A stretch of DNA of 64,000 bases, from assembly GCA_030390025.1 (NCBI GenBank), contig CM059444.1:24676001-24740000 (forward strand), given 5' to 3'. A model generated the notes under the pieces. That model worked only from the letters and a program-made list of their open reading frames with translations, searched no databases and was not told the DNA's origin. The translations under genes were made by a program, and so were the position numbers. Below, in pieces: positions 12,551 to 64,000 of this stretch. Position 1 is the first letter of the stretch. Every line of letters starts with the position of its first letter. Source of the stretch: Squalus acanthias. Lineage: Eukaryota.

Positions 12551-12750
12551 GTGGAGATGCCGGCGTTGGACTGGGGTGGACAAAAATGAGAAGTCGCACA
12601 ACACCAGGTTATAGTCCAACAGATTTATTTAATTTTACAAGCTTTCGGAGCAGTTCGCTCTAACTTACCTGACGAAGGAGCGAACTGCTCCGAAAGCTTG
12701 TAAAATTAAATAAATCTGTTGGACTATAACCTGGTGTTGTGCGACTTCTC
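12551..12750. mobile_element. Penelope-like family B, short fold-back insertion
   Basis: Duplication (CTC)TATTTATAAA at 12538-12550 and 12748-12760; about 12588-12660 is the reverse complement of about 12678-12750. Confidence 0.88.
12665..12703 (+). ncRNA. Minimal type I hammerhead ribozyme motif (family B)
   Basis: TTAC-CTGACGA-A-GGAGC(GAACT)GCTCC-GAAA-GC-TT-GTAA: intact core, stems I and II, palindromic AAGCTT in place of stem III. Confidence 0.8.
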
Positions 12751-14236
12751 TATTTATAAACCCAAGTAACCCAAATAGTACCTTATCAACTTGCCCTGTC
12801 ACCTTTAAGGATTTGTGTATATGGACACCAAGGTCTCTCTGCTCATCTACACTTTTCAAAATATGCCATTTATAGTATACTGTCTTTCCATATTAGTCCT
12901 CCCAAAGTGTATCACTTCACACTTCTCCGCATTGAACTCCATCTGGCATACTTCTTCCCATTTCACCATCTTGTCTATGTCAGCCTGAAGTCTACAACTA
13001 TCCTCATCCTGATCTATTACGTTGCCAAGTTTCATATCATCTGCAAACTATATATGCTGCTCCCTACACCCGAGTCTAAATTGTTTATAAAAATTGAACC
13101 CAAAACTGACTCTAGGGAACACCACTGCAAACCACCTCCCCGTCTGAAAAACATCCATCCATCCATCACCACTTTGCTTCCTGTTACTGAGCCAATTCCA
13201 TATCCATACCGCCACTTTTCCCTTAATTCCATGGGTTTCCATCTTCTTGATAAGCCTCCTGTGTGGCACTTTGTCAAATGTCTTCCGAAAGTCCATATAT
13301 ACAACATCTACTGCACTACCTTGATCAACTTTCTCTGTTACCTCATCAAAGAATTCAATCAAGTTAGTCAGACACAATTTGCCTTTAACAAATCCATGCT
13401 AGCTCTCCTTGATTTACCCATGCCTTTCAAAATGAAAATTTATTTTGTCCCTGATAATGGTTTCCAATAACTTCCCCACCACCAATGTTAAGCTGACTGG
13501 CCTGTAGTTTCCTGGTTTATCCCTCTCCCCTTTCTTGAATAGTGGTATAACATTAGTAACCCTCCAGTCCTCCAGTTTGGATGCCCTTCCTTTCCCCCTC
13601 ATGGAAATGTGTCTATTCTGTACCCGAACCATCTCCTCTTTGAAGGCCTCCCATTGTTCATTTAGTACCTCAGCCATGCCCTCTGTCTCCACAAGAATAT
13701 TTCCTTTTAGGTCCATAATCGGCCCCAACCTTCTTAGAGATTTCAAAATTGGTAAACTAAGTTTTTACTTTGATCTGGAGGCTCCCAAGACATGAGATAC
13801 AAAGGAGGGAGCTACAATCTACCACATTTTCTACACAAGCATTGTGAATCTTCCCAAATCCCGCTCTCCTCAAGAAGTGATTAGTCTTTTTCCTTTCTCA
13901 AGTGCTTGCCAATTCATTCCCTGGAGGTTTCATGTTATTATCATGCCTATAGGTTTTGCAGAAGCTTATTAATTGACAGTTGTCCAGTTTATCTCCTAGC
14001 CTCTTTACAGATGATCTTTTATTGCCTGTTTGTTGTTAGTATTTTTCTAAGAATCCCTTTATAATCAAATGCATCCATTTCTTGTGCAACAGGCATATGA
14101 ATTAAAAATGGGTTGTGTAAATCTGGTCGGAAAAGTACACTGATAATTCCAATTTCTTTAATGGTTACATTGTTATCAGAGAATATTGCATCATATCTAG
14201 TAATACTTAATTAGAGAAAAGTAGACCTAATAATAG

Positions 14237-14635
14237 GTGTCAGCCTTCACTCAGAGGTAGCAATCTCACCTCTTAAAGTCAGTAGGTCATGGATTCAAGC
14301 CCCACTCCAGAGACTACAGCACATAATCTAGGCTGATACTTCAGTGCACGACTGAGGCAGTGCTGCACTGTTGGAAGTGCCATCTTTCAGATGAGACAGT
14401 CAACTGAGGCCCCATAAAAGATCCTGTGGCACTATTCGAAGAAGAGCGAGGGAGTTCTCCCGGTGTTTGAGCTAATACTTATCCCTTAACCACCACCACT
14501 AAAACAGATTATCTGGTCATTTACCTCTCTGCGCAAATTATCTGTCACATATCCTACAGTCTTTACATTTAAAAAATATTTAATTGGCTGTGAAGTCCTT
14601 ATGTACATTCTGAGGTTGTGAAAGGCACTATAAAT
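14237..14635 (+). mobile_element. tRNA-derived DeuSINE (SacSINE1-like)
   Basis: tRNA-like head, Deu-type core (gtgccatctttcagatgag...ggcactattcgaagaagagc) and L2-like tail; multiple copies in the window. Confidence 0.85.
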
Positions 14636-14962
14636 CCAATGGGGAGGGGTAAGGTTTGGGGAGGAATATGACTTCCGTCCAAAATGGCACGAAGTCAGTG
14701 CTCCTCACTGCCCCACAAAATGCACCTGTAAAGTATTTCTGGGGCTTTCCAATAGCTGCCACCAGCAATCCCTTTAAGGACCACTGGTTAGGGTGCTCAC
14801 CACCGCGTACAAATGGACGGAACGTGCACAGTGCCCACTCTAAAATTTTGCCTGAAAATTACAATCGGGTGTCCTCTGGCGTAGGACACTGGTTTGCTAC
14901 TTAGGCAGCCTTGCGCCTGAAACCACGGGCATGCTGCTCTCGCATTTACAGACCCTCCTGAA

Positions 14963-16303
14963 AATAGCAGAGCACTTGGAAAACAGTGACAGGATCGGAC
15001 AAAGTCAACATGGATTTACAAAAGGTAAATCGTGCTTGACTAATCTACTGGAATTTTTTGAGGATGTAACTGGTAGAATAGATAAGGGAGAACCAGTGGA
15101 TGTGGTGTATTTGGACTTTCAGAAGGCTTTCGATAAGGTCCCGCATAAGAGATTAGCGTGCAAAGTTAAAGCACATGGGATTGGGGGTAAGGTACTGATT
15201 TGGATAGAGAACTGGTTGGCAGACAGGAAGCAAAGAGTTGGAATAAACGGGTCTTTTTCCGAGTGGCAGGCAGTGACTAGTGGGGTACCGCAGGGATCGG
15301 TGCTAGGACCCCAGCTATTCACAATATATATTAATGATCTAGACGAGGGAACTAGATGTAATATCTCCAAGTTTGCAGACAACACAAAGCTGGGTGGGCG
15401 TGTGTGCTGTGAGGAGGATGCAGAGAAACTCCAGTATGATTTGGACAGGTTGAGTGATTGGGCAGATGCATGGCAGATGCAGTATAATGTGGATAAATGC
15501 GAGGTTATCCACTTTGGTGGCAAAAACAGGAAGACAGATTATTATCTGAACGGCAATAGATTGGGAAAAGGGGAAGTGCAATGAGATCTGGGAGTCCTTG
15601 TGCACCAGTCGCTGAAGGTAAGCATGCAGGTGCAGCAGGCGGTTAAGAAGGCAAATGGTATGTTGACCTTCATAGCGAGAGGATTCGAGTACAGGAGCAA
15701 GGATGTCTTGCTGCAGTTGTACAAGGCCTTGGTGAGACTACACCTTGAGTATTGTGTGCAGTTTTGGTCGCCTTATCTGAGGAAGGATGTTCTTGCCATG
15801 GAGGGAGTGCAGCGAAGATTTACCAGACTGATACCTGGGATGGCAGGAATGACGTATGAAGAGAGATTGGGTCGATTAGGCTTATATTCACTAGAGTTTA
15901 GAAGAATGAGAGGGGATCTCATTGAAACTTATAAAATTCTAACAGGACTAGACAAACTAGATGCAGGAAGGATGATCCCGATGGCAGGGGAGTCCAGAAC
16001 CAGAGGTCACAGTCTAAGGATAAGGGGTAAGCCATTTAGGACTGAGATGAGGAGGAATTTCTTCACCCAGAGAGTGGTGAACCTGTGGAATTCTCTACCA
16101 CAGAAGGCAGTTGAGGCTAATTCATTAAATATATTCAAGATGGAGATAGATATATTTCTTAAGGCTAAAGGGATCAAGGGATATGGGGAGAAAGCAGGGA
16201 CAGGGTACTAAATTTGGATGATCAGCCATGATCTCATTAAATGGCGGAGCAGGCTCGAGGGGCCGAATGGCCTACTCCTGCTCCTATCTTCTTTGCTTCT
16301 ATG
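14963..16303 (+). mobile_element. CR1 LINE, 5'-truncated, young subfamily
   Basis: ORFs 14931..15584 and 15600..16211 are near-identical to the 920-aa ORF2; one CGA>TGA stop at 15582 and FADD>FADN. Confidence 0.95.
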
Positions 16304-16628
16304 CATCAGGCACACCTTGGACGTCAGTGGCGTGCCCGAGATGCCCCCCACCCCCTCCAAATGTTCAACTGCTGACAGCTTGTTTTTCAGGTGAGATGAG
16401 GCAGTCGGCAGTGGCCCAGACAATTAGAAATAATACAGTTTTGATGGACAGGCATGGGACAAGAAGTTCCTGAAACTCTAACAGGAGGAAAGCCAAGCTG
16501 TTTTAAGATCCCCATAAGCAGAGACCAGCTGGAGGAAAAGTACTGTTTCTGGCAAAAACTTAGTCACAAATAGTGTAGGCAGAATGAACTGCAGTTGTTA
16601 AAATGTTTGCAGACCAAGATATTTGTTT

Positions 16629-16928
16629 GGCCCAGAATTTCCTGCAGACCTGCACCATTGGAATGGCACATCTACGGCATTAGGTCCATTTGCCACCACG
16701 AAAGTCCCAGGAAGTTATGGCGTAAGTGAGTTACGCCATTATTCACACTGCACCATAAGTTCCTGGAACCTATGCCAGTACCCTTGCCTGAAACTGTGAA
16801 AAGTTGATTATCATAGCCCCGCATCCCAGGAAATTTTGGTGTAAATTTGCAATGGGAAGATTAATGCGAGAAACAGCTTAATTTACGGCACACATCATTG
16901 ATCGAGTCGTTTCAGGAAATTCTAGGCC
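16629..16928. mobile_element. Harbinger-type MITE
   Basis: TIRs GGCCCAGAATTTCCTG / CAGGAAATTCTAGGCC; no clean TSD. Confidence 0.65.
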
Positions 16929-17673
16929 ACATCAATAAAGGCATTATACAGTAAAGGGGCTTTAGAGTTGGGAAGCCTTATTAAGGGGACCATCCATTTG
17001 CTGGTGATCTGCTATGCTTTACTGGATGCCAGCATTTGACTGAATGTTCTGGGAGGATGAGGGTCTGTACTGCAGATTTACTGATAAGGTCCACTACTGA
17101 TAATTCAACTTCATTTTTTTTTTGCTCTGGGAAATTTTGAATGATCCAATACTTTGAATTAAGCAATGTAATTAACACCACAGTAGAAATGTTGTGCTAA
17201 AAAATTGAACTGACAGATCATTTGGAATTAAGACTGTATCCACCTGTTTTCTCATTGAAGTCAATGGAAAGAAAAATCTGCTGGGGTCTATAATGGGCTA
17301 TTGCCCGTTTTACGTCCACCCCCAAAAGTTGACTTTCTCCCTAGGTCTCAGCTGAAGTAAAATACTCAAATTTTTGATTATCCTCCTTAGCCATGTAGTT
17401 CTTCACTTTCTCAAGATTAGCCGTTAACAATGTTTTAATGGTATTATGGATTCTGCTTCCACCACTGTTTCTGCTGGTACATTCCGTGTCCTAAAAACCG
17501 ATCGTGTTTAAAAAAGAAATGGGCTTTATTCTGAACATTTTTCTTGTGATTGTTAATTCACATTTGGAGGGCTAAGAGCCGCACTAAATATGAATGAATA
17601 TTCAGGTAGCATTCATTACGGTTTGCTCCCGTCTACTTTTTCACTAAAATTAGTGAACAAAGGATAATATATA

Positions 17674-20742: not shown

Positions 20743-20930
20743 GTGTATTGAACCTTGGTTAGACCACACTTGGAGTACTGTTTACAGTTCTGGTCGCCAT
20801 ATTATAAAAAGGATATAGAAGCACCGGAGAGGATGTCAAAAAATATTTACAAGGATGATACCAGAACTGCGAGGTTATACCTATCAGGAAAGGATGAACC
20901 AGCTGGGTCTCTTTTATCTTGACCTAATAG

Positions 20931-21707: not shown

Positions 21708-24470
21708 TCAGTACCTTGTACCTGCCTTCTCCCCATATTCCTTGATACCTTTAGCTTTAAGAAATATATCTAACTCATTCTTGAATATATTTAATGACTT
21801 GGCCTCAACTACCTTCTGTGGTAGAGAATTCCACAGGTTCACCACTCTCTGGGTGAAGAAATTCTTCCTCATTTCTGTCCTAAATGGCTTACCCGTTATC
21901 CTTAGATTATGACCCCTGGTTCTGGACTCTCCGACCATCAGGAACATTCTTCCTGCATCTAGTTTGTCCAGACCTGTCAGAATTTTATATGTTTCGATGA
22001 GATCCCCTCTCATTCTTCTATACTCCAGCGAGTATAAGCCCAATCGACCCAATCTCTCCTCATATGTCATTCCTGCCATCCCAGGTATCAGCCTTGTGAA
22101 TCTTCGCTGAACTCCTTCCATGGCAAGAACATCCTTCCTCAGATAAGGCGACCAAAACTGCACACAGTACTCAAGGTGTGGTCTCACCAAGGCCCTGTAC
22201 AACTGCAGCAGGACATCCCTGTTCCTATACTCAAACCCTTTCGCTATGAAGGCCAACATACCATTTGCCTTCTTCACCGCCTGCTGCACCTGCATGCTTA
22301 CTTTCAGCGACTGGTGCACAAGGACACCTAGGTCTCGTTGCACTTCCCCTTCTCCCAATCTATTGCCATTCAGATAATAGTCTGCCTTTCTGTTTTTGAC
22401 ACCAAAGTGGATAACCTCGCACTTATCCACGTTATATTGCATCTGCCACGCTTCTGCCCACTCACCCAACCTGTCCAAATCATCCTGGAGTTTCTCTGCA
22501 TCCTCCTCGCAGCACACACTCCCACCCAGCTTTGTGTCATCTGCAAACTTGGAGATATTACATTTAGTTCCCTTATCTAGATCACTAATGTATATTGTGA
22601 ATAGCTGGGGTCCAAGGACCGATCCCTGCGGTACCCCACTAGTCACTGCTTGCCACTCGGAAAAAGACCCATTAATTCCTACTCTCTGCTTTCTGTCCGC
22701 CAACCAGTTCTCTATCCAAGTCAATACCTTGCCCCCAATCCCATGTGCCTTAACTTTACATGCTAATCTCTTATGCGGGACCTTATCGAAAGCCTTTTGA
22801 AAGTCCAAATACACCACATCTACTGGTTCTCCCTTATCTATTTTCCCAGTTACATCCTCAAAAAATTCCAGTAGATTAGTCAAGCACGATTTACCTTTTG
22901 TAAATCCATGTTGACTTTGTCCGATCCTGTCACTGTTTTTCAAGTGCTCAGCTATTACATCCTTTATAATGGACTCTAGCATTTTCCCCAATACCGATGT
23001 CAGGCTTACCGGTCTGTAATTCCCCGCTTTCTCTCTACCACCCTTTTTGAATAGTGGGGTAACATTAGCTACCCTCCAATCCATGGGTACAGTTCCAGAT
23101 TCCATCGAATGTTGGAAGATGATCAGCAATGCATCTACTATTTCTAGGGCCACTTCCTTAAGTACCCTAGGATGTAGATTATCAGGCCCTGGGGATTTAT
23201 CGGCCTTCAATCCCGTCAATTTCCCTAACACCATTTCCCTGCAAATACTGATTTCTTTCAGTTCCTCCCTTTCATCAGACCGTATGTTCTCCAACATCTC
23301 TGGGAGGTTATTTGTGTCCTCCTTTGTGAAGACAGAACCAAAATATGCATTTAATTGGTCTGCCATTTCTTTGTTCCCCATTATAACTTCCCCCGCTTCT
23401 GACTGCAAGGGACCTACACTTGATTTCACTAATCTTTTTCTCTTCACATATCTATAAAAGCTCTTACAGTCAGTTTTTATGTTCCCAGCAAGCTTACTTT
23501 CATATTCTATTTTCCCCTTCTTAATTAATCCCTTTGTCCTCCTTTGTTGAATCCTAAACTGCTCCCAATCCTCAGGGCTACCGCTTTTTCTGGCCAATTT
23601 ATATGCCCTCTCCTTGGATCTTATGCTATCCCTAATTTCCCTTGTTAGCCACGGTTGAGTCACCCTTTTTGTTTTATTCTTATGCCACACTGGGATGAAC
23701 AAATTCTGTAGTTCATCCATGCAGTCTTTGAATGTTTGCCATTGCCTATCCACCGTCAACCCCTTGAGTGACATTCCCCAATCAATCCTACCCAATTCGC
23801 GCCTCATACCATCGTAATTTCCTTTATTTAAATTCAGGACCCTAGTCTCTGATTCAACGACTTCACTCTCCATCCTAATGAAGAATTCTATCATATTATG
23901 ATCACTCTGACCCAAGGGGCCTCGTACAACAAGATTGCTAATTAATCCTTTCTCGTTACATAATACCCAGTCTAAGATGGCCTGATCTCTGGTTGGTTCC
24001 TCGACATATTGTTCCAGAAAACCATCTTGTAAACATTCTAGGAATTCCTCCTCCACAGTATTTTTACTAATTTGGTTAGCCCAATCTATATGTAAATTAA
24101 AGTCACCCATGATGACTGCTGTGCCCTTACTGCATGCTTCTCTAATTTCCCTTTTAATGCCATCCCCAACCTCCGTATTACTGTTTGGAGGTCTATATAC
24201 CACTCCCACTAACGTTTTCTGCCCCTTGTTATTTCTCAGTTCTACCCATACAGATTCCGCATCATCAGAGCTAATATCCTTCCTTTCAATTGTGTTAATC
24301 CCCTCTTTAACCAGCAATGCTACCCCACCTCCCTTTCTTTTTTGCCTATCTTTCCTAAATATTGAATAACCCTGGATGTTGAGTTCCCAGCCTTGGCCAC
24401 CCTGGAGCCATGTTTCTGTAATCCCAATCAAATCGTATTCATTTACCTCTATTTGCGCAGCTCCTTGCAT
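21708..24470 (-). CDS. CR1 ORF2: APE endonuclease plus reverse transcriptase (920 aa; extreme N-terminus frameshifted off)
   Basis: GITETWL, GVVYRPP, MGDFN, SDHN (EN); [28 protein letters not shown] (RT); no internal stops. Confidence 0.93.
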   Translation of the reverse strand: MQGAAQIEVNEYDLIGITETWLQGGQGWELNIQGYSIFRKDRQKRKGGGVALLVKEGINTIERKDISSDDAESVWVELRNNKGQKTLVGVVYRPPNSNTEVGDGIKREIREACSKGTAVIMGDFNLHIDWANQISKNTVEEEFLECLQDGFLEQYVEEPTRDQAILDWVLCNEKGLISNLVVRGPLGQSDHNMIEFFIRMESEVVESETRVLNLNKGNYDGMRRELGRIDWGMSLKGLTVDRQWQTFKDCMDELQNLFIPVWHKNKTKRVTQPWLTREIRDSIRSKERAYKLARKSGSPEDWEQFRIQQRRTKGLIKKGKIEYESKLAGNIKTDCKSFYRYVKRKRLVKSSVGPLQSEAGEVIMGNKEMADQLNAYFGSVFTKEDTNNLPEMLENIRSDEREELKEISICREMVLGKLTGLKADKSPGPDNLHPRVLKEVALEIVDALLIIFQHSMESGTVPMDWRVANVTPLFKKGGREKAGNYRPVSLTSVLGKMLESIIKDVIAEHLKNSDRIGQSQHGFTKGKSCLTNLLEFFEDVTGKIDKGEPVDVVYLDFQKAFDKVPHKRLACKVKAHGIGGKVLTWIENWLADRKQRVGINGSFSEWQAVTSGVPQGSVLGPQLFTIYISDLDKGTKCNISKFADDTKLGGSVCCEEDAEKLQDDLDRLGEWAEAWQMQYNVDKCEVIHFGVKNRKADYYLNGNRLGEGEVQRDLGVLVHQSLKVSMQVQQAVKKANGMLAFIAKGFEYRNRDVLLQLYRALVRPHLEYCVQFWSPYLRKDVLAMEGVQRRFTRLIPGMAGMTYEERLGRLGLYSLEYRRMRGDLIETYKILTGLDKLDAGRMFLMVGESRTRGHNLRITGKPFRTEMRKNFFTQRVVNLWNSLPQKVVEAKSLNIFKNELDIFLKAKGIKEYGEKAGTRY

Positions 24471-24665
24471 TAAGACACAAAGCCTTCAGGCTTGTTTTTT
24501 TAACGCTCTCAGACCTATATGAATTATTATTTACTGTGACCATGTTTGATTTAAACCGTTGAGTTCTTTGCCTTCTACCTTTGTTTTTCTCCTTCCTGTC
24601 TTTAGCTTTTATCTTTGTTTCCCTTTCCTCTGTCTCCCTGCTCAGGTTCCCAACTCCTTGCCACT

Positions 24666-26040: not shown

Positions 26041-26426
26041 CCTAATTCTGTGCCAGTAACATTATATGATCAATTCTCTCCTGACTGTGAAAATTTTTGA
26101 TTAACTCAATGACGTGGTAGCTTGGCTCCACTGGTAGCACTCTTGCCTCTGAGTCAGAAGACTTTGGGTTCATGTCTCACTTCAAGATTTAGGCATATAA
26201 TCTGGGCTAACACTTCAGTGCAGCATTGAGGGGGTGTTGTGTTGTCAGAGTTGCTGTTCAGATGGAATGAAAGATCACTTTTTGTCACGTTTCAAAGAAC
26301 AGTAGGCAGTGTCTCTCCAACATTAATACGATAGCAAAATACTGCAGATGCTGGAAATCCGAAATAACAACAGAAAACGCTGGTAAAACTCAGCAGGCAA
26401 GGCAGCATCCGTGGAGAGAGAAACAG

Positions 26427-26463
26427 AGTTAACGTTTCAGGTCGAAGACCTTTCATCAGAACT
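26427..26463 (-). ncRNA. Minimal type I hammerhead ribozyme motif (family A)
   Basis: AGTT-CTGATGA-A-AGGTC(TTC)GACCT-GAAA-CG-TT-AACT on the minus strand. Confidence 0.78.
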
Positions 26464-27300: not shown

Positions 27301-27337
27301 AGTTCTGATGAAAGGTCTTTGACCTGAAACGTTAACT
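27301..27337 (+). ncRNA. Minimal type I hammerhead ribozyme motif (family A)
   Basis: AGTT-CTGATGA-A-AGGTC(TTT)GACCT-GAAA-CG-TT-AACT; palindromic AACGTT. Confidence 0.78.
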
Positions 27338-29249
27338 CTGTTTCTCTCTCCACGGATGCTGCCTCGCCTGCTGAGTTTTTCCAGCGTTTTCTGTTGTTAT
27401 TTCGTCTCTCCAACATTCCTTTCTCAGCCAACACCACCAACAGTAGATTAACTGGTTGTCTGTGTCATTTGCCATTTCTGGAAACTAGCTGTGTGTAAAT
27501 TGGCTGCTAGGTACATAACAACAGTGATTGCATTTCAAAAAGTAAATCATTGGATTTGAAGAGCTATATAAATGCAAAACCCTTTCTTTCAATGACTCTT
27601 GAACTATAGCTAACCAAATTATAGACATTTTCAAGGCAATGGTTATTTTATTTTGTAGGTTCCAGATAGATAGATGTCAGCAAATGCAAGCATGCAGACC
27701 AAATCATCATCCTTGATGGCTCAGCTAACAAAAATAAACTCTGCAGTATAAAGGCCAGGTGTTTTGATTTGGAAATCAGCCAGGTGCAGAATGCATTTTT
27801 CAAGACTAACACGATGACACCTCGTTAAGTTATTAATTGGGTATGACAGGCCTGGACGAGATGTGAGCTATTAATCAAATGGTGAGTGTTCACGATGCTC
27901 CATTGTATCTTTGAAGCTGGCTTGAATGTCAGCTTTCTGCTTCTAGACCACTTTAGGCTGTAATAAATACAAGAAGCGGCTGGCCAGTTCTTCCCCTTTT
28001 CTTCATCATGATTATCCAATTATCTCTTAAACATTATTGAGTCAATTTCAATAGCACTTGTGGTAATCCATATCACATTCTCATAACCCTTTGAGCAAAA
28101 AAATATTCATCTAACTCCCCCTTTGAAAGAAAGATGTGTCTATCTGCATTTCAGATCTCTCTGTTCCTTTGAACCATTAACATTTTTACCATTTAGGGTA
28201 TATTTCCATTCTCTGTTCTTTGTCCCAAAATGTACTACTTCACAGGGAGTGTTATTAGATACATGAAATGAGATCAGTGGGTTGCATCCGTCCACAAGGG
28301 CATGCAATTACACCAAAGTTATTCTCAAGCCATTTTTCTATTGCCTAAAGCCTGTTGTCAATTATGAGCATGAGGGTTCTTCTGCAGTACTGCCAGTGAC
28401 TAGTCCAGTCTCTTCAATACACCTGTGAGGGCATTCTCAGATGTGGAGAGTATTATACTGAGTTGTTATCCCTCCTAAAAGGCCAGTTAGTTATAAAAAA
28501 TCTTCATGGAGGATGGCAAGTTGGTGGAGTGAAAATCTATCCCATGCATTTTTTTGTATCATTCTCTGTTCCAGCACACTCCCCTTTATTAAAGCAGAAC
28601 ATTGTTTCGGTAATTTCAATGGATCTGATAATGCTACAGGAGAAATGTGCACAATCACCTTTAATACCATTTTCTAAGTAAAACAGTGTAATGGGAATTC
28701 AGTCCGATTGAAATGGATGAGTAACAAAATCTCTGCATCAACCAAACTTGCTCTGAAAATGACCTTGCAGTTATTAAGCTTGATTTTAACTCAGATAGTG
28801 CAGTGGTACAGTAGATCAGAGCACTAATGTACTGCAGCTTGGAATAGTTGGACATGTGTTTTCACCTCTGATTCCCTCACACAAGAGCATAATTCCGTTA
28901 GAGTGTAAACAATTACAGAAAATGTGAGGAAAGCTGATAGTTTTCACAGATTTTCAGCAAACTGCATTATTTACACCTGTAGTGGATTTTTCCCATTCAT
29001 GGAGTGCTGAGATGTAAATAATGAAACCAGAGAGGAAAAATAGCTTGTTAATGTTTCAAATGTACTCGCTGAGGTTATTTGCTTAGAAGCAGTTGTTTTT
29101 CTCTTTTCTCCATTCAGTTGGGGTAATATTCAAGCAGAGCTGAAGCTGCCAATGGGACACAGTATCTGGATCAGTCTGGTTACTTTCAGTGGGATGTAGG
29201 TGATGATCCTGTTGTCATTGTCACATCTGACCTGAACCCCATTCACACT

Positions 29250-30395: not shown

Positions 30396-30397
30396 AT

Positions 30398-39781: not shown

Positions 39782-40010
39782 GCAAAAAAGCAAAATACTG
39801 CAGATGTTGGAAATCTGAAAAGAAGAGAAAATGCTGGAAAAACTCAGCAGATCAGACAGCATCTGTGGAGAAAGAAAAAAAACTTAAAGTTTCAGGTCCT
39901 ATGATTCTTTGTTAGAACTGGAAGATATTACAGACCAACAGCTTATAAGGAGGAACAGAGCAAGGGAAAAGGGGTGGGGAAAAAAACCACCACATACACA
40001 GGAGAAAAAA
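39782..40010 (-). mobile_element. Penelope-like family A terminal repeat, degraded
   Basis: gcaaaatactgcagatgttggaaatctgaaa...ctcagcag...agcatctgtggaga matches 26334-26470; hammerhead core decayed. Confidence 0.75.
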
Positions 40011-42020: not shown

Positions 42021-42449
42021 GATTGCCCTCTCCAAAAATGATAGACATAAATATTCTATGTTCCCTGGATGTGTTATCTGGAGAAACAATTGGCCGGACT
42101 TCAATCATGTGGATTGTAAGGTTGGTTTGATATTAGGGGGTTTTGATCAATTACCTTTGGAAGTTGGGGAGAAATTTCACAATACCTTATCTTCTTGAAG
42201 GTTTCTTCTGAGGTTGGTTGCCACCCTTTAGAGTCTAAGTGGTTTAGAACAGGGCAGATTATACATGGTTTATGGAAGGAATGGGTTTGATGGGCCAAAT
42301 AGTTTTTTTGCCATTACCTGTTTGAGCAAGCCTTTGGCTTAGGGTTAGCTTTACTGCCTCTGAATCAGAAGGTGCAGCGTTCAAACCTATTTGGTGCCTC
42401 TTCTGGTGTACTGCCTGATAAAACTGGATGGGGACATCCCAATAAAGTA

Positions 42450-42510
42450 AGAAGTCGCACAACACCAGGTTATAGTCCAACAGTCCAACGCCGGCATCTC
42501 CACATCATGA
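42450..42510. mobile_element. Penelope-like family B, 61-bp inverted mini-insertion
   Basis: 12-bp duplication CCCAATAAAGTA (42438-42449, 42511-42522); an inverted piece joined to the 3' tail at a gtccaac repeat. Confidence 0.85.
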
Positions 42511-46560: not shown

Positions 46561-48098
46561 TGTATCGGGCTTCAATTTTGTTAGCTTCCCCCATTGTGTA
46601 TTTGGGGTAGATGCTGCATTTTGTGTGTATTGGGGTCTTATACATGCGTATGAAAGCTCACATTTCTGCATAACCATATGGTGCTCACTCATTGCTTTTG
46701 ACACGTGTATCTGGCCCTCAGCTCCAAAGGTTGGACATGCTGCCTTCAGATATACAATAATGCGGTTATGAAACCTGATAGACATCGAATGAACATCACG
46801 CTGTACTTTTAAGGTGTTAAGCTAAACTGTGCAGATATCCACGGTCGGATGCATTCTCACAATATGACCCTATCAACTACAGATGGCTGCTGCATTAACA
46901 TTAGTTACTGTTATTGGCATACCTGCCAATGGAAGATAAGACAAAATGTAGTAGGTTAGTTAAATAACAATAAATATTGCAATGCAAAAAGAAAGACAAA
47001 AAAATTACATCAGGTCAATAGTGGAAAAGACAAAATACTGTCATTACATCATATATGTAAATAATAAATAAATAATTCCCTGAAAAGTACCCTTTGGCTA
47101 TTCCTTGATCTATTTAAATGTGCCTCAAATTGGATCACAAGAATGTCTATTCCAGCACATAAGGTGCATGTGATCCACTTACAGGGGAGCAGGTATCTAC
47201 GCCTGATCAAATTCAGAACAGCTACAGTCTCAGAATTTATGTCTCAATGGAGTAAAGTTGTTTGCTTTTAGTACTATACTTCAGTTACTTACACTAGATA
47301 AGTAAAGTGTTTTCTTCAACTTGTGTTCATTATCTACTTTCATTGAATGAACTGCTAGATTTTTGTTTCAAACAGAATTGGTTCAAGTATTTTGTAAACT
47401 AATCACTCCTGATATGTGTCCTGTTTAATTTAGTATGTTTATGTTTTTAAATTTGAAATTTTAATGTTTGCTATTTAGTTGTCAATTTTGTTGCACTTCA
47501 TGTGATTATGCATGTTTTTGGCATTTTCACTTAATCTATAATGGTTAAGCTGCCTGAAATTGGTGAAAAACTATTGGAAACAAATTTGAAGTTAAAAAAA
47601 TTCCATGAATCAAAGAATTGTACAAGTAGATTACTAATTGGGGCTGGTGGTTTGTGCAAAATAAGCTACTCCTTTTATGACCTTGGTAACTCATAACTCT
47701 CACATAGCGAAGGCATGGTGGGACTTGGCAGCCTATTCTGCATAAACCATTCATTGCTGCAGTGGATTTTCTATTACGACCTTCAAATTTAAACTATACG
47801 CATTTCAGACAGTGAATCATGGTGCGGTAGATATGGTCCCATTTATGAATGCTAATAATGCCTGAGGTCCACTATTTAGTAAGATTTGGAGTGATTTTAT
47901 TTGCATCTGAACAGCAATAACTAGCATTAGTGTCTAAGTTAAGGACAAGGAGACAATTTGACCTCCTGATAATGTCAGTGAATTCGTTTTTAAAAATGAA
48001 CAGTAACAAGTCTGCCAACCAACTGTACACTGCTACTTAGAGGAAAAAATTGAGAGGTCGCACAACACCAGGTTATAGTCCAACAGTTTTATTTGAAA

Positions 48099-48140
48099 TC
48101 ACAAGCTTTCGGAGCTATCGATTGCTCCTTCCTCAGGTGA
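48099..48140 (-). ncRNA. Minimal type I hammerhead ribozyme motif (family B)
   Basis: Inverted copy of 48818-48859. Confidence 0.78.
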
Positions 48141-48817
48141 AGTAAATTAGATACAGAATCGCCAAAGCCTATATAGATAGAAAACAAAGCATGTGTACCT
48201 TACAATTGCAGACCACGGCGAGACCATGCAGACACTGAGACAACGTATGAACGAGCACCGCGCAACAATCGCCAGGCAGGATTGTTACCTCCCAGTCGGG
48301 GAACACTTCAGCAGTCAAGGGCAGTCAAGGACATTCAGCCTCGGATCTGCGGGTAAGCGTTCTCCAAGGCAACCTTAGAAACACACGACAACGCAAAATC
48401 ATCGAGCAGAAACTGATAGCCAAGTTCCGCACTCATGAAGACGGTCTCAATCGGGATCTTGGGTTTATGTCACGATACATGACGTGATCCGGACTCGAGT
48501 CGTCGTTAGCTTGTTCACAGATGTGATTCCCAGTAAAAAAGTAAACATTTTCCCAGTAAAAAAGTAAAAATTTTAAAGCTTTTCGTTTTACATACAGACG
48601 GCAGCTTTTGACACGTTAGAACCCCTGCGACTACACCTCATTGTCTCAGTTGTATCTTGCTATGTCTTTGATGTGGTACCTTCCTGGCTGACTTAATTAA
48701 CTTTATTACACCTCGGCAGATAGTCAGGATGATTTAATTTAGTGGTCTGCAATTGTAAGGTACACATGCTTTGTTTTCTATCTATATATGCTTTGGCGAT
48801 TCTGTATCTAATTTACT

Positions 48818-48859
48818 TCACCTGAGGAAGGAGCAATCGATAGCTCCGAAAGCTTGTGA
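48818..48859 (+). ncRNA. Minimal type I hammerhead ribozyme motif (family B)
   Basis: TCAC-CTGAGGA-A-GGAGC(AATCGATA)GCTCC-GAAA-GC-TT-GTGA. Confidence 0.8.
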
Positions 48860-50406
48860 TTTCAAATAAAACTGTTGGACTATAACCTGGTGTTGTGCGA
48901 CCTCTCAATTTTGTCCACCCCAGTCCAACACCGGCATCTCCGCATCATGACCACTTAGAGGAAAGCCCATCCATTGTCATTAAATAGCAAATTGCATGTT
49001 TCATTACCAGGGCCATAATATATTAGCTTTGACTTTATCACCTTACCACTATTTAACACTGTGCCATGCCTCATCTTAGGTCTTTAAAGTTCAGGGACAA
49101 AATATGCAAGTCTTGCACGAACCAGCTTGCCAGTTTCAGTTTCTAATAGCACTTAAAATAGAACCGTCGCCAACATGAAACATTGTGAGTCTATGAGGGT
49201 GGAGGAGAAGAGAGAGGAGTTCTAAAAACTAATGTAGAACCTAAATTTACCTGATTTTTATTTTTTATTTGAACACTTCTTGGAATTAATTGTGAAATTA
49301 ATCTTATTAACTGGAATAATCTTTTATCCCAGGAAATACTTTGAAATCTCTGAAATAAAACCCAATCCTTCAAATGTTTCACGCCAGTACAATTAGACAT
49401 TTTAAAATATACAGGTTTGAATTCTAAGGAAATTGTGGCAACATTTATTTTTGATTTGGAAGGTCAATCTTTGCAGAATTCCCATAATTTCTTTGCTGAA
49501 AATCCCAATAATTATGAAAAATGTTAAGCTGTTTATCCAACTAACTGTCAGTAAGTGAACATTTCCACCATAACTAAACACAAACTAAGAATCTTGTGAA
49601 CTTTGCTCATGGTAAGTTGAATGATGTGCTGTTTTTAAATGACAGCAGCATTATACAATGTAAAACACAAAATTATTTTGCTGCTAAAATGAAGCTGTGT
49701 TAAACTGACCTGTCCTTTAAAATTCTAACTGCGGCTTGCAAATTGGAAGGTGCTGGTAATTTTTTGGCTCCAGGTCTGAAGAACTCAGCATGAAATTGAT
49801 AGCTTTCTTTCTCATTTATTTATGATTGTTTTTGCATCTATAACAAATCATGACAGCTGGAGTGTGGTGTTTGAAAAGTGATGACACACACTAAAAGCAA
49901 AACTTGGATATTAGTGGATCACCAGTGCCAGATATGCTGTTTTAGAAGGACAGTTTCATTATAACATGGAATGCTCAACACAGTATTCATCTGCTAAAGT
50001 GCAGCTCTGTGCAACTTGGCGTGTCACTTCAAGGTATAAATACTGCGACTGCCTGCGTTAATTAAAGGGTAATTGTTCTTAGATAAATTGTCTGGGTCGA
50101 TTAGAAGTCAATTTGGTTTCTCGGACCTTTTTAAAGTGTGACTCCTAAAGCAAATTAGAAGGTATTTTCTATTGGTGAGAAAGTTTATCTCTGCATTAGA
50201 AATGATTGGATTACTTTCTCACTTTTTAAATTATTTTATTCGGTGTAACAGAAATGTGTGCAACATCTGAAGTGAGTAGGGTGTAGTCAGAACTATATAT
50301 TTCCCGTGGCATTTCTCATGATAAGTAGGATGGTACACTGCTTTAGTAGGACAGCATTGTTATACCATGTAATACACAATGTAACATTCTGCTAAATAAT
50401 TAAGTT

Positions 50407-50990
50407 GTGTCAGCTATGGCTCAGAGGTAGCACTCTCACCTCTGAGTCAGAAGGTTGTGTGTTCAAGTCCCGCTCCAGAGACTTGAGCACATAATCTAGG
50501 CTGACACTTCACTGCTAGTACTGCGGGAGTGCTGAATTATTCAATGTGCCATCTTTCGGATGTGACGTTAAACCAAGGCCCCATCTGCCCTCTCAGGTGG
50601 ACGTAAAAAATTCTACAGCACTATTCGAAGAAGAGCAGGGGAGTTTTACCCGGTGTCCTGGCCAACATTTATCCCTCAACCAACATCTAAATCAGATGAT
50701 CTGGTTGTTTAGTTCATTGCTGTTTGTGGGAGCTTGCTGTGCATTTCTTACATCGCAACAATGACTACACTTCAAAAGCACTTCTGACGAAAGGTCATCG
50801 ACCTGAAACGTTAACTCTGTTTCTCTCTCCCCAGATGCTGCCTGAGCTGCTGAGTATTTTCTGTTTTTATTTCAGGTTTCCAGCGTCTGCAGTATTTTGC
50901 TTTTTTATTAGTGTTCAAAAGTACTTAATTGGTTGTAAAGTGCTTTCCTGAGGTCATGAAAGGTGTTCGATAAATGCAAGTCTGTCTTTC
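50407..50990 (+). mobile_element. DeuSINE carrying a Penelope-like insertion
   Basis: Full SINE sequence interrupted at ttcaaaag(c/t)actt. Confidence 0.88.
50784..50913 (+). mobile_element. Penelope-like family A 3' fragment beginning at the hammerhead core
   Basis: Duplication TTCAAAAG(C/T)ACTT (50771-50783, 50914-50926); starts CTGACGAAAGGTCATCGACCTGAAACGTTAACT. Confidence 0.85.
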
Positions 50991-52076: not shown

Positions 52077-52619
52077 GTGAGTTAAGGAATTTCTATTAGA
52101 ATTATTTCACCATTGGTTTGATTATGTCAACGTTTGAGCTACTAGGAGAAATAAATTAAATCACTGTTGCCCTGGATAAGGTTTATATTCTGTGCTTCGA
52201 GTTTAAATGCGCAATTAAAAAGTTTCCCGTCTGCTAAATAGACTGCAATCTATCTACCTGTTACAGTGACAATTCTCTGATGAGACATCATCTGCTGAGA
52301 CTCGGCCAGGCTTGATTTTAAAACGGCAATTGGATATAAAAATAGAACTAATATTTGCCATTTGAAACTTAGATTTTGTTTCCTTGTAGTTTGGGGGATG
52401 TATGAAAGATCTCCCTCTTCAGAGGCTGCAAAATTAAACAAAGCCGGTCAAATGTAATAACATTGCACCTTAGGTTGATTGCAGGAGTTGCTGGTATATT
52501 TGCCCTTAAACCAATTATCTAAGCTTCAAAAATAGGAAAACTGTTGATTTTGCAACAGTTCAGAACAGCACAGATTTCTGCATAATTATTGTTACTGCTA
52601 CTGTCCTGATAATTTAGAA

Positions 52620-52819
52620 TAAAAATAGAAAATGCTGGAAACACTCAGCAGGTCAGGCAGCATCTGTGGGGAGAGAAACAGAGTTCACGGTTCAGGTCGA
52701 TGACCCTTCGTCAGAACTGAAACGTCTGTTTCTCTCTCCACATATGCTGCCTGACCTGCTGAGTATTTCCAGCATTTTCTGTTTTATTTCAGACTTCCAG
52801 CATCAGCAGTATTTTGCTT
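52620..52819. mobile_element. Penelope-like family A, short fold-back insertion in prokineticin intron 1
   Basis: 14-bp duplication CTGATAATTTAGAA (52606-52619, 52820-52833); inverted arms; minus-strand hammerhead with GAAA changed to GAAC. Confidence 0.87.
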
Positions 52820-57802: not shown

Positions 57803-60690
57803 AAGAATAAAACCGGACGGACCACCCGGCATCAATCCTCGTCGCCGGCTTCGGACACAACAACGCACACTCAGCCCAGGTGCCCTGCAAAGTCCTCCTC
57901 ATTAACATCTGGGGACTTGTGCCAAAATTGGGCGAGCTGTCAAGCAACAGCCTGACATAATCATACTCACAGAATCATACCTATCAGCCAATATTCCAGA
58001 TTCCTCCATCACCATCCCTGGGTATGTCCTGACCCACCAGAGGTGGTGGCACAGTGGTATACAGTCTGGAGCAAGTGGCCCTGTGAGTCCTCAACATTGA
58101 CTCCGGATCCCATGAAGTCTCATGGCTTCAGGTCAAGCATGGCCAAGGAAACCTCCTGCTGATTACCACCTACTGCCCTCCCTCAGCTGATGAATCAGTA
58201 CTCCTCCATGTTGAACACCACTTGGAAGAAGCACTGAGGGTAGCAAGGGGCACAGAATGTACTCTGGGTGGGGGACTTTAATGTCCATCACCAAGAGTGG
58301 CTTGGGTAGCACCACTATTGACCGAGCTGGCTGAGTCCTGAAGGATGTAGCTGCCAGACTAGGACTGCAGCAGGTGATGAGAGAACCAACACAAGGGAAA
58401 AATCTACTTGACGTCCTCACCAATCTACCTGTAGCAGATGCATCTGTTCATAACAACATTGGTAGCAGTGACCACTGTACAGTCCTCATGGAGACGAAAT
58501 CCAATCATCACACTGAGGACACCCTCCATCGTGTTGTGTGGCACTTCCACCGTGCTAAATGGGACAGATTCAGAACAGATCTAGCAGCTCAAAACTGGGC
58601 ATCCATGAGGCACTGTGGGCCACCAGCAGCAGCAGAATTGTATTCCACCACAATCTGTAACCTCATGGCCCGGCATATCCCTCACTCTACCATTACCATC
58701 AAGCCAGGGGACCCTGGTTCAATGAAGAGTGCAGAAGAGCATGCCAGAAGCAGCACCAGGCATACCTAAAAATGAGGTGCCAACCTGGGGAAGCTGCAAC
58801 ACAGGACTACTTGAATGCTAAAAAGCGGAAGCAGCATGCTATAGACAGAGCAAAGCGATCCCACAATCAACAGATCAGATCAAAGCTCTGCAGTCTTGCC
58901 AGATCCAGTCGTGAATGGTGGTGGACAATTAAACAACTAATGGGAGGAGGAGGCTCCATGAATATCCCCATCCTCAATGATGGCGGAGCCCAGCACGCGA
59001 GTGCAAAAGACAAGGCTGAAGCGTTTGCAACTACCTTCAGTCAGAAGTGCCGAGTGGATGATCCTTTTCAGCCTCCTCCTGACGTCCCCACCATCACAGA
59101 AGCCAGACTTCAGCCAATTCGATTCATTCCACATGATATCAAGAAACGGCTGAGCGCACTGGATACAGCAAAGGCTATGGGCCCCGACAACATCCCGGCT
59201 GTCGTGCTGAAGACTTGTGCTCCAGAACTAGCCGCACCTCCAGCCAAGTTGTTCTAGTACAGCTACAACACTGGCATCTACCCAACAATGTGGAAAACTG
59301 CCCAGGTATGTCCTGTCCACAAAAAGCAGGACAAATCAATCCGGCCAATTACCATCCCATCAGTCTACTCTCAATCATCAGCAAAGTGCTGGAAAGTGTC
59401 ATCGACAGTGCTATCAAGCGGCACTTACTCACCAACAACCTTCTCACTGATGCTCAGTTTGGGTTCCGCCAGGACCACTCAGCTCCAGACATCATTACAG
59501 CCCTGGTCCAAACATAGACAAAAGAGCTGAATTTCAGAGGTGAGGTGAGAGTGATTGTCCTTGACATCAAGGCAGCATTTGACCGAGTGTGGCATCAAGG
59601 AGCCCTGGTAAAATTGAAGTCAATGGGAATCAGGGGGAAAACTCTCCACTGGCTGGAGTCATAACTAGTACAAAGGAAGATGGTTGTGGTTGTTGGAGGT
59701 CAATCATCTCAGCCCCAGGACATCGCTGCAAGAGTTCCTCAAGGCAGTGTCCTAGGCCCAACCATCTTCAGCTGCTTCATCAATGAACTTCCCTGCATCA
59801 TAAGGTCAGAAGTGGAGATGTTCGCTGATGATTGCACAGTGTTCAGTTCCATTCGCAACTCCTCAGATAATGAAGCAGTCCATGCCCGCATGCAGCAAGG
59901 CATGGACGACTTTCAGGCTTGGGCTGATAAGTGGCAAGTAACTTTTGTGCCACACGTGTGCCAGACAATGAATATCTCCAACAAGAGAGAGTCTAACCAC
60001 TGCCCCTTGACATTCAACGACATTACCATCGCCGAATCCCCCACCATCAACATCCTAGAGATCACCATTGACCAGAAACTTAACTGGACCAGCCACATAA
60101 ATATTGTGGCTACAAGAGCAGGTCAGAGGATAGGTGTTCTGCGGCGAGTGTCTCACCTCCTGACTCCCCAAAACCTTTCCACCATCTACAAGGCACAAGT
60201 CAGGAGTGTGTTAGGAATGCTCTCCACTTGCCTGGATGAGTGCAGGACAAAGCAGCCCGTTTGATCGACACCCCATCCACCACCTTAAACATTCACTCCC
60301 TCCACTACCGGCACACCGTGGCTGCAGTATGTACCATCTACAAGATGCACTGCAGCAACTCACCAAGGCTTCTTCGGCAGCACCTCCCAAACCCGCGACC
60401 TCTATCACCTAGAAGGACAAGGGCAGCAGGCGCATGGCAACACCATCACATGCAAGTTCCCCTCCAAGTTACACACCATCCTGACTTGGAAGTATATCGC
60501 CGATCCTTCATCATTGCTGGGTTAAAATCCTGGAACTCCCTCCCTAACAGCACTATGGGAGTACCTTCACCACACGGACTGCAGCGGTTTAAGAAGGTGG
60601 CTCACCACCACCTTCTCAAGGGCAATTATGGATGGGCAATAAATGCTGGCCTTGCCAGTGACGCCCACATCCCATAAACAAATTTTAAAA
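57803..60690 (+). mobile_element. Second LINE family, near full-length decayed EN-RT ORF
   Basis: EN pieces NIWGL, PDIIILTESYL, GDFN, SSDH; RT pieces [34 protein letters not shown]; many stops and frameshifts. Confidence 0.9.
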
Positions 60691-60776
60691 AATTGGAAAT
60701 CCTAAATCCTACAGGGGATCTGGAACCTGTGTGAACAGGGCAAGCAACTGTGTGTCTCCTGAACCAATTAAAGTGA

Positions 60777-60929
60777 TGATGTGGAGATGCCGGTGTTGGA
60801 CTGGGGTGGACAAATGTGAGAAGTCGCACAACACCAGGTTATAGTCCAACAGCTTTATTTGAAATCACAAGCTTTCGGAGCGCTGCTCCTTCGTCAGGTG
60901 AAGTCTGTGCAGAAGGAGCAGCGCTCCGG
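60777..60929 (-). mobile_element. Penelope-like family B terminal fragment with hammerhead (60865-60901, -)
   Basis: Duplication AAT(T/C)AAAGTGA; minus strand TCAC-CTGACGA-A-GGAGC(AGC)GCTCC-GAAA-GCTT-GTGA; short inverted piece at 60912-60928. Confidence 0.85.
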
Positions 60930-63439
60930 AATCAAAGTGAAGCAGTGTAGGTTAGAATATTTAATTTAATGTCAAATCTTGTACAGAAAACAAAATAAAG
61001 AGAGGGAGAGAAAGATGGGGTTAAGAGAGAGTGATAAAAGAGACATAAAGAAAAAGTTAAAATAAAATGATTTTAATGTTCTAATTTTTTTAAATCTCCA
61101 ACAATTAAAATCTGAAGGAATGAGACTCCACACTTATGAAAATTAATTTTCAGTGCCAGAGAGGTTGTTTGACAGTAATTAAGACTGGAATGGACAAGCC
61201 CTAACTTTTTCTGGCGTGTTTACTGGGTATCTATCATGTAAGTACAGCAATTTCACACAGTTCCATTTGTTTCAATGCTGAGTCTCTCGGTGAGATACCA
61301 TTATCACGCAGCTTTTGGTGTAGCAGAGCAACTCGGACAGCAACTTTATGATTTCTGCATTTAACTGCGCATGTGCGGTCGGCGGAAGTTGCTGTCTGAT
61401 TTACTCTTTAATAATGGTGAGCGCTGTTAGCCTCACCATTATTTTTGTCGCAAAATCTGGGCCCTTATATTCAACTTTCCCAACAAGACTTGCTGGAAGC
61501 CTTGTGGTTTAAATCAGTGTGGTTCTGAACTGCCAGTTAGAAAATAAAGTAGCATGTTTTTTAAGTCTAGCAAGGTAGATCTGGTTCTTCCTTTCTGGAC
61601 CTGTGGAATCAAACCTCACTGTTACAAATTGGTGACTCAATGGTGATTGAGATAGCGATATCTCATTCAGGGAAATAGATGGTGAGCAGTCTGCAGCTGT
61701 CGGTAATGGAGAGGGAGGGGAAATGTCTAGAAGAAGACCCCAGAGTAGAGAAAAACTCTTAACTCTCAACATACTATAGGAATCAGTCATACGCTTGCTG
61801 CTACATGTTAAGGATACTTTAAAAGGCAAGACAGCTCAATAGCAAATTAACAAAGTCTTGGCTGAGATGAATTCTCAGCAGTGAATTTGGCAAGCCTAAG
61901 GCAAGCTTCAACAAAATAATTGAGAACCAGTGCAGGAATGCAATATGTGATGAGTACTTGAATAGATCAGTGTTCTGAAATATTAAAGATGTTTGGACAT
62001 GTGCCTATAATCTTCAGATGAATTCAGATAGAAATTATGAAAATAGATAGTCTGTAACCAAAACAGGAAGTGGCAGGGAGAATGAAGACAGGAAATGCTC
62101 TCAATTTAAGGAAGAGTGGTCTAACAATAAGTTGGGAACTTCAGCTTCACAGGAAAATGTCACCTCTCCATTCATCCAGATGAAAGATTATTGAAAAATT
62201 AGAGGATGGGATGCTGGTTCAGGTATATAAAGAAGAATCACAGTGCAATATGTGGGCCCTGATCCAAAAGCAGCAATGAACAGCAATGAACAGATAGACA
62301 ATAACTAGTCTGTAACCCCATTCATAGAACTCTGAGCCCAAGTCATTAGAGTTGAGTCATGCCTTAAGCTACCTATATAATCATCAGAGAATTAGAACCC
62401 TCAATTCAAAACAGTGCATAGGCTCAAAGGAAAAAGCAGACAACAGCAATATATAAAACTAATGAACTTTCTGATTGGCACCTGAGTAATTATTAGACAG
62501 CTGGGATCCAGTGATTACAACAGGTTTTTTTAACTAAGGAGGCTGCATCTAGAAAATAATTAGGCATCTTCCATTTAAAGTAAAAGAATAAACAACTGAG
62601 CTTAGGTACTTGATTACAAATAAAAATGAAAACTCTATCTTTGAAGTTAAAGGGCAGGTTAATGTTTGGGTGGACCCTTCACCAAAAGAGTACTTGATCT
62701 TAAATTCAGCTGCATCAGGGCAAAGGATAGTTTACTCTTTACTTGTAACCTACAAAGCAGATATTTGCAGAAATATTGAAAATCCCTGACTTAAATTTTT
62801 AATCACTTGTCCAAAACAATATATGCATTGCCGGTGATCAGTTAAACTATTCACTGCGTATGCACTAGCACTGCAACACAGAACAGCATAAAAACACTGG
62901 AGTGGCACAGGTTGCTATTCTCGCTATTCCTTTCAAAGTTATTGATGCAATCTGCAGACTCAGTATTAACAAGAAAAGGGGAAAGAATAACAAAAGTGAA
63001 AAAATAACCCACCGCTCTTTGAATACTGACAAGACTCAATTATGCATAAATGGTAGCTGAGGTATGCACAAAGTTACAACAATTTGGAGACCACACTATA
63101 CTCCCCACAATGTCCAGTTGCTAACTAGCTCTGAATCTTAAGTGGAAAGAAACTAAACAATATTGCAGCGACTCAGCTAAAATCTTACCTGAATATCCTG
63201 CAGCAAAGTTTTACTAACTACAATGAGATAAAACTCACAGCAAGAAGAAATGGACTTGTTTTTGCAGACAGAAGGGAATCCATTAGTGGAAATTAGGCAA
63301 CCTAACAACTGGTGTTGCCTCGAAACATGAGAGCTGAAGTGCTTGATCAGCCATAATCACTGTTGATATGTCGACACCTAGCTATCTGGAAGACTGGTAA
63401 AATTATGTAACAACCATTACTGAAGTAGCTGTAGCTGAT

Positions 63440-63825
63440 ACAACAACATGCATTTATATAGTACCTTTAAAGTAGAAAAACATCCCAAAGTGCTCCACAG
63501 AGATGTAATCACGAAATGGACGCTGAGCCAAAGAAGGAGATATTCTAAAGGGTAACCAATAGCTGAGTTCTGACTAGCAGGGCTACGGGGAAAGGGCGGA
63601 GGAGTGGGACTAGCTGAAGTGCTCTTGCAGAGAGTCGGCATAGGCTCGACAGGCTGAATGGCCTCCTTCTGTGCTGTAACCATTCTGTGATTCTATTCTA
63701 TGATTCTATGAGTTTTAAGGACAGTTTTAAAGGAGGAGAAGGAGGGGGAGAGGTGGAGGGGTTGAGGGAAGGAATTCCAGTGCATGGGGCTTAGGCAGCT
63801 GAATGCACAGTCATCAATAATGAGC
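63440..63825 (-). mobile_element. L2-type 3' tail with a nested CR1 3' end (about 63585-63711, +)
   Basis: caacaacatgcatttatatag... L2 tail; inserted CR1 3' UTR ends in ATTCTRTG repeats. Confidence 0.75.
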
Positions 63826-64000
63826 CATGATGTGGAGATGCCGGTGTTGGACTGGGGTGGACAAATGTGAGAAGTCGCACAACACCAGGTTATAGTCCAA
63901 CAGTTTTATTTGAAATCACAAGCCTTCGGAGCGCTGCTCCTTCGTCAGGTGAAGACTTCACCTGACGAAGGAGCAGCGCTCCGAAAGCTTGTGATTTCAA
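63826..64000. mobile_element. Penelope-like family B fold-back insertion running off the window
   Basis: Palindrome centred near 63955; hammerheads at 63916-63952 (-, GAAA>GAAG) and 63958-63994 (+, intact). Confidence 0.88.

Follow-up and report, generated by a model that had tools for sequence, protein, structure and literature searches.

What role do hammerhead ribozymes play in Penelope-like elements (PLEs)? The question is raised by a stretch of 64,000 nucleotides (nt) of the Squalus acanthias genome (GenBank assembly GCA_030390025.1, contig CM059444.1, positions 24,676,001 to 24,740,000), called the window below and numbered from its first letter, in which ten hammerhead-like copies with a core were counted. 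Judged from their sequence and surroundings, these motifs are almost certainly minimal type I hammerheads in the terminal repeats of two Penelope-like families, here called A and B. The best explanation, to which we give a probability of about two in three, is that they lie in the repeats of Neptune-type PLEs and are likely the first structure of a capped mRNA that is reverse transcribed uncut. The large and young copy set makes the role of these hammerheads testable: it offers a single-base prediction for the RNA start, its junctions indicate that the cut does not define insertion ends, and insertions seemingly built from two RNAs bear on the way in which inverted structures, a hallmark of the class as a whole, arise.

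Two hammerhead families and their coding elements

Six of the ten copies belong to family B (12665, 48818 and 63958 on the forward strand; 48099, 60865 and 63916 on the reverse strand) and four to family A (27301 and 50780 forward; 26427 and 52682 reverse). The coordinates and sequences quoted in a first-pass annotation of the window are all correct, and its reading of the motifs as minimal type I hammerheads in two families of Penelope-like repeats agrees with the coding units and the motif survey described below. Its count of about ten copies holds for motifs with a core, but these represent only seven insertions, because 48099/48818, 63916/63958 and 26427/27301 are the inverted arms of single insertions. 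The insertions and their parts are as follows.

12551..12748, unstranded: family B fold-back mini-insertion whose tailed arm is on - and whose short arm is on +; 12-nt target duplication at 12539-12550 / 12749-12760
12665..12703, +: family B minimal hammerhead, stem I UUAC/GUAA
26325..27403, unstranded: family A insertion whose arms are inverted, with C-terminal fragments of the endonuclease; target duplication of 14 nt at 26311-26324 / 27404-27417
26427..26463, -: family A hammerhead of the inverted arm
27301..27337, +: family A hammerhead, stem I AGUU/AACU
48047..48952, unstranded: family B insertion, 5'-truncated, with an inverted arm; 12-nt target duplication at 48035-48046 / 48953-48964
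48099..48140, -: family B hammerhead of the inverted arm
48205..48480, +: frameshifted C-terminal fragment of the family B GIY-YIG endonuclease, matching the end of the intact open reading frame (ORF) in locus L215
48818..48859, +: family B hammerhead, stem I UCAC/GUGA, loop II of 8 nt
48912..48949, +: 'tail', found on a single arm; in full-length copies its final bases (48947-48949) form the ATG of the ORF
50780..50916, +: family A mini-insertion that begins at the hammerhead core (50780-50816)
52618..52819, unstranded: family A fold-back mini-insertion with a damaged hammerhead (52682-52718, -)
60776..60931, unstranded: family B mini-insertion with a hammerhead on - (60865-60901) and, before it, an untemplated G (60905)
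63827..64000, unstranded: family B fold-back insertion that runs off the end of the window; it has a hammerhead with a core change on - (63916-63952), another on + (63958-63994) and a G at the junction (63954)

A strict descriptor (stem I of at least 3 bp, stem II of at least 4 bp, GAAA-NN-UH) was passed by seven of the ten copies and matched nothing in any of 200 dinucleotide-preserving shuffles of the window. Core changes are present in copies 63916 (B) and 52682 (A), and in copy 50780 (A) the letters of the upstream 'stem I' are part of the target duplication. An Rfam scan of the window gave no hammerhead family among its 8 matches at E<=5. In the 3.7-Gb genome the exact motif was matched 41,304 times for family B and 42,622 times for family A, with no match for the control patterns, and the 3' flank anchors were found 100,328 (B) and 79,685 (A) times.

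Which elements carry these motifs? Fragments of the endonuclease C-terminus lie upstream of both A and B motifs in the window. Elsewhere in the genome, complete units of both families consist of a hammerhead, a single ORF for reverse transcriptase (RT) and GIY-YIG endonuclease, and a second hammerhead, with a length of ~3.05 kb in B and ~3.2 kb in A. In locus L215 (B), a 919-codon open frame lies between hammerheads 3,046 nt apart, and its ATG is at the extreme end of the 'tail'. The 1,004-codon open frame of family A recurs in many of 150 scored matches and is present in all six loci inspected, five of which have two hammerheads ~3,200 nt apart. The hammerheads are on the sense strand in both flanking repeats (L215 and L149 for B; L441-L444 and L446 for A). 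The A motifs in long direct arrays at L212-L214 proved to be segmental repeats and were rejected as full elements. Insertions typically carry an inverted copy at the 5' side, the tail at one end and target duplications of 12-14 nt, and partial tandems occur.

The proteins, 891 aa from the ATG in B and 971 aa from the first ATG in A, share 32% identity. Both have a Pfam match to RVT_1, while the GIY-YIG match of A is slightly below the cut-off; their alignment shows RT motifs, the DKG motif, a CX4CxxC linker and the CCHH GIY-YIG motifs. A CX2-5CxxC linker before the endonuclease is described as common to Neptune and Nematis and absent from Penelope/Poseidon (PMC8557442). By this linker motif the elements are endonuclease-bearing (EN+) PLEs of Neptune type, a label chosen over Nematis since, of the two, it is Neptune that has been reported in fishes. 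The closest named homologues among the matches listed are shark proteins with 80-94% identity, and the 120 listed homologues include no named clade reference element.

Junctions of short copies and the probable start of the RNA

Where do the short copies begin? Junction samples were anchored on the 3' flank, and two arms belonging to the same insertion do not count independently. For 126 family B arms, 29 of the 5' ends fall in the 11 positions from -13 to -3 of the core, with the mode at -7, compared with 12 in 47 upstream positions and 26 in 48 downstream positions. For 137 family A arms, 21 fall in the six positions from -8 to -3, 12 in 52 upstream positions and 39 in 48 downstream positions, and the junctions peak at -5/-4. 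Exactly at the cleavage site there is none of the 126 B ends and one of the 137 A ends. Genome-wide, purine-preceded junction motifs of family B number 4,575 at -7 versus 643 at the cleavage site, and on inspection these were true junctions at 30 of 30 loci for -7 and at 22 of 30 for the cleavage site. The cleavage site was rejected as the source of insertion 5' ends, the pile-up being instead at the 5' edge of stem I. The inserted copies retain both sides of the cleavage site.

The base before the junction gives a further indication. In the main B group, the first 100 matches listed have 82 G and 18 A before the -7 junction, compared with 42 G and 58 A among the first 100 listed before the cleavage-site junction (Fisher test, p=7e-9); before -6, where the alternatives are C and U, G is found in 19 of the first 100. 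Long copies carry C or U at -8. In L1 and SVA, an extra G at full-length 5' junctions has been ascribed to the cap in published work. TATA-like words stand 30-32 nt above the inferred starts in both families. When compared with the initiator consensus, the inferred start points match an initiator-like word. In the window, these putative signals are seen in the insertion at 48047..48952.

48783..48789, +: TATA-like word, 32 nt above the presumed start, kept across subfamilies
48813..48819, +: initiator-like word; transcription probably starts at its A, 48815 (-7 from core C3), judging from the junction pile-up and the G excess

From the pile-up at the 5' edge of stem I together with the untemplated G, the hammerhead likely lies at the capped start of the element mRNA, which would begin at the foot of stem I, and we infer that this RNA is copied into the genome uncleaved at the hammerhead.

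Some smaller features of the junction region should be mentioned. At some junctions (L069, L075/L076, L125) the first 6-7 bases of the presumed RNA are repeated, resembling RT stutter at a template end. A splice acceptor just before the A stem I, as in the fly element, was rejected, since the junctions peak at -5/-4 rather than -2 and share no upstream exon. A strong splice-acceptor-like tract lies 3' of the A hammerhead (27334-27356 in the window), with AG in some subfamilies and GG in others, and an AAUAAA is found ~10 nt 3' of the B cleavage site (48864-48869).

Fold, conservation and rival explanations

Is the hammerhead fold maintained? Variation, including covariation, was surveyed at 254 B and 135 A places of this one genome, many of them selected by pattern and thus not a random sample. 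Two features recognized in the first-pass annotation extend to the whole survey: N7 is free, being C, G or A in B and U in a young A subfamily, and the extra base between positions 9 and 10.1 is A in 253 of 254 B and 132 of 135 A places. At H17, U or C is seen at 250 of 254 B places and at all 135 A places. As position 17 is C in 24 B and 12 A places, the 6-nt palindrome proposed to replace stem III shrinks to a kept part of 4 nt, AGCU in B and ACGU in A. There is no helix III, and the palindromic 15.2-16.2 is GC in 251 of 254 B places and CG in 118 of 135 A places. The G10.1-C11.1 pair is present in 250 of 254 B places. The proposed covariation of stem I in family B is real in that pairing is kept, but it concerns one base pair and one or few events: the third pair is C-G in 125 places, U-A in 109, U-G in 5 and C-A in 3, while the fourth is frequently unpaired (C-A 18, G-A 12). 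Stem II, described as fixed from the window copies, is not so genome-wide, where its recurrent changes in B are G-U wobbles (29, 18 and 9 places) or one compensated pair (6). Over 37 haplotypes, each seen at least twice (46 were listed, and 9 were dropped for apparent CpG decay, point changes or junction effects), 98.2% of stem cells are paired, and none of 500 shuffles is as high. Independent covariation events are few, because most two-sided stem changes separate A from B.

In 32 long B copies, a variant shared by three copies occurs in none of 14 core columns, compared with 27 of 41 upstream columns (p=1e-5) and 7 of 28 downstream columns (p=0.075). By the same rule, 9 of 14 core columns are flagged in 66 A copies; this naive test fails in A owing to a few copies with deletions or CpG decay. 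The earlier suggestion of selection thus stands for the B core against its upstream flank; the core does not clearly differ in conservation from the downstream flank, and the A test gives no such contrast. Taken across subfamilies, these patterns support selection having acted on the hammerhead. In four of the 66 long A copies (L179, L200, L339, L345), differing deletions remove stem II and the GAAA, where the RT may have skipped the hairpin. When two copies were co-folded, stem II rather than stem III was paired between molecules, in a type of folding that does not model the core.

Several observations weigh against a capped start at an active ribozyme. The base before the A junctions shows a modest G excess (38 G, 30 A, 32 U; p=0.009). 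Microhomology of 1-3 nt with the other arm also explains ~18 of 24 inspected B junctions with G. A prediction set beforehand, that the UUAC/CUAC subfamily of B starts at -13 with a G excess, failed: of 138 matches, the first 100 have 26 G, 32 A and 42 U (p=0.32), the -7 control for this subfamily being swamped by another subfamily. The 21 rows of public sequencing runs are all contigs, one of them recorded as RNA at a small share, and the four that were aligned say nothing about RNA ends or expression. Family A is mostly without G10.1-C11.1 (A-U 87, G-U 42 and G-C 1 of 135), and there are subfamilies with a U4C core (L018:73-110, L142, L124, L203), which in B occurs together with the compensated stem II pair. 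Might the pile-up then come from RT stalling or template switching at the folded motif, with the G excess due to microhomology or untemplated C addition? The microhomology and the failed -13 prediction fit such an origin, as do the spread of junctions from -13 to +12 rather than at one base and the A copies deleted across the hairpin. However, the pile lies beyond the far (5') edge of the structure with a tenfold drop upstream, the G excess is specific to -7, the TATA-like words stand at 30-32 nt in two unrelated families, and the G of L253 is outside the target duplication. We regard stalling as improbable.

If the hammerheads instead cleaved efficiently and the cut defined the inserted RNA, as unit-length or circular molecules (proposed in 2014), the core and stems would be kept across subfamilies, as they are; tandem units do place two motifs on one transcript, and religated circles would also retain both sides of the site. 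This is nevertheless unlikely, because of the missing pile-up of ends at the site and because a circle has neither a -7 end nor a cap G; in the anole element, moreover, cleavage is reported to be dispensable for insertion (PMC11167929). Alternatively, the motif might have almost no catalytic activity left and be retained because it serves some purpose besides cleavage, for instance as a protein-binding site or a folded leader at the 5' end. The downstream leader is conserved almost like the core, the A pairs at 10.1-11.1 and the U4C variant point the same way, rates reported in vitro for relatives are very low, and Naiad elements are described as thriving without a hammerhead. Against this, variation falls where the hammerhead mechanism tolerates it, at N7 and at H17, and the C3/G8 rescue in the anole element demonstrates real catalysis (PMC11167929), so that we consider a purely structural role very unlikely. 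An uncut, capped RNA beginning with the hammerhead therefore remains our preferred explanation.

Fold-back arms, a possible cycle and known relatives

Do the two arms of a fold-back insertion come from one RNA? The two arms are identical in 52 of 116 head-to-head B pairs, and 27 pairs were singled out because they differ in ways of which both versions are common; 10 of the 27 were dropped by eye as junction-overlap artefacts. Under a stricter pattern, the two arms have a different loop II in 5 of 17 short fold-backs and in none of 15 long ones; random pairing would give 0.51 and 0.78. The arm pairs are single events, since a target duplication and a tail limited to one arm were seen in each of the 12 pairs checked. 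In L148, L257 and one L264 insertion, the arms differ at no fewer than two linked diagnostic sites. Repeated slips of the RT might account for loop differences of one base, and gene conversion is a possible source of arm differences; arms from two subfamilies in one insertion hint at two template RNAs. In rotifers, palindromic junctions have been read as self-priming (PMC3846280), which the two-subfamily arms here do not fit; two complementary DNAs (cDNAs) joined head to head would fit better.

This gives a scenario as follows. A TATA/initiator promoter in the upstream repeat would start transcription by RNA polymerase II, 7 nt before the core in the main B group and 4-5 nt before it in A. The element protein would start copying at two internal sites of the RNA, ~90 and ~130 nt downstream, corresponding to the 'tail' ends as in the anole element, and would pass the intact ribozyme to the cap, which may be copied as an extra G. 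The cDNAs, primed on both target strands and sometimes from two RNAs, would be joined head to head. Cleavage is predicted after CUU/CUC (B) or GUU/GUC (A) and would be slow, taking place once two motifs have paired at the AGCU or ACGU palindrome, probably with the aid of the element protein. It would remove the cap and ~35 nt, or release unit-length RNA from tandem transcripts, and probably does not fix the ends of most insertions. A broader and more tentative proposal, which we think somewhat less probable than its opposite, is that the short insertions, which number tens of thousands, are an in vivo record of the PLE cycle: with the hammerhead 4-7 nt from the mRNA cap and reverse transcription starting internally and crossing the uncut ribozyme as far as the cap, a protein dimer might hold two RNAs and prime one per target strand, and the same complex might pair two hammerheads in trans, giving both the head-to-head inversions and the protein need for cleavage, which would act as a decapping switch.

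How do these families compare with known ones? The ribozyme class is already known, and the finding adds two abundant families to it. Cervera and De la Pena 2014 (PMC4209133) describe the architecture of minimal hammerhead ribozymes in the pseudo-long terminal repeats (pLTRs) of metazoan PLEs, including Neptune of fishes, with low, dimer-dependent activity; related motifs are reported to cleave slowly or only with protein (PMC4209133, PMC11167929). Shared with their motifs are the type I fold, short helix I, extra base at 9/10.1 and palindromic 15.2-16.2, as well as several families per genome, mostly truncated copies, opposite-strand pairs and an occurrence reported in Neptune elements of fishes. 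The differences are a helix II of 5 bp here, A-U or G-U at 10.1-11.1 in family A, and copy number, with ~84,000 exact motifs here versus 4,000-9,000 reported in coelacanth and frog (PMC4209133). Sharks are not named in the consulted text of that paper, whose supplements may list shark motifs.

For the Poseidon element PAc of Anolis carolinensis, Frangieh et al. 2024 (PMC11167929) report that cleavage is assisted by protein, that the RT starts at internal sites coinciding with the tail ends, and that both strands of the target are extended. PAc and the elements here share a hammerhead near the ORF start, two ends ~35-40 nt apart (the tail) and an uncleaved RNA template. Unlike PAc, the elements here have a Neptune-type linker, and the B ATG is at the tail end, ~125 nt after the core, while the first in-frame ATG of the young A subfamily is inside the core (A6-U7-G8); the start site, the cap G and two-template arms are not among the features described in the available text of PMC11167929. 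In this young subfamily (L441-L446; 27305 and 26459 in the window) the core spells the first in-frame ATG of the 971-aa ORF because N7 is U; it would be 6 nt from the cap, and two more in-frame ATGs follow downstream. The B leader 3' of the hammerhead (48872-48932 in the window; L215, L149) is predicted to fold into a long hairpin, with the short insertion end in its loop and the long insertion end at the ATG; the anole RT start sites are likewise reported in a stem-loop.

A promoter in the pLTR of an upstream partial copy, putative here, would be shared with Drosophila virilis Penelope (PMC2377424) and rotifer pLTRs (PMC3846280). The latter are reported to have a putative TATA box and initiator, and an inverted pLTR, tail and target duplication as here. 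The D. virilis promoter differs in being TATA-less, with its start 46 nt above an intron, the end of which is at helix I (PMC2377424). Non-LTR retrozymes (bioRxiv 10.64898/2026.07.22.740005) also have type I hammerheads tied to Penelope-like repeats, including those of a chondrichthyan, but are described as tandem non-coding repeats, while the motifs here are dispersed truncated ends of coding elements; no tandem non-coding hammerhead array of that kind is among the 11 tandem-repeat rows of the window. For the Penelope-like class, no published cap G, stem I start or two-template arms were found in a literature search that covered subscription journals thinly.

The window also holds older or partial copies of both families.

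4756..4840, +: family A end fragment without hammerhead
39784..39985, -: family A copy, old and decayed
42444..42510, unstranded: family B end fragment without hammerhead

A large share of the window is made up of reverse transcriptase ORFs or fragments of long interspersed nuclear elements (LINEs) at 21708-24485 (-), 14856-16211 and 58335-60677, which we take to be CR1-like and others. Many of the Penelope copies sit inside these LINE ORFs or fragments.

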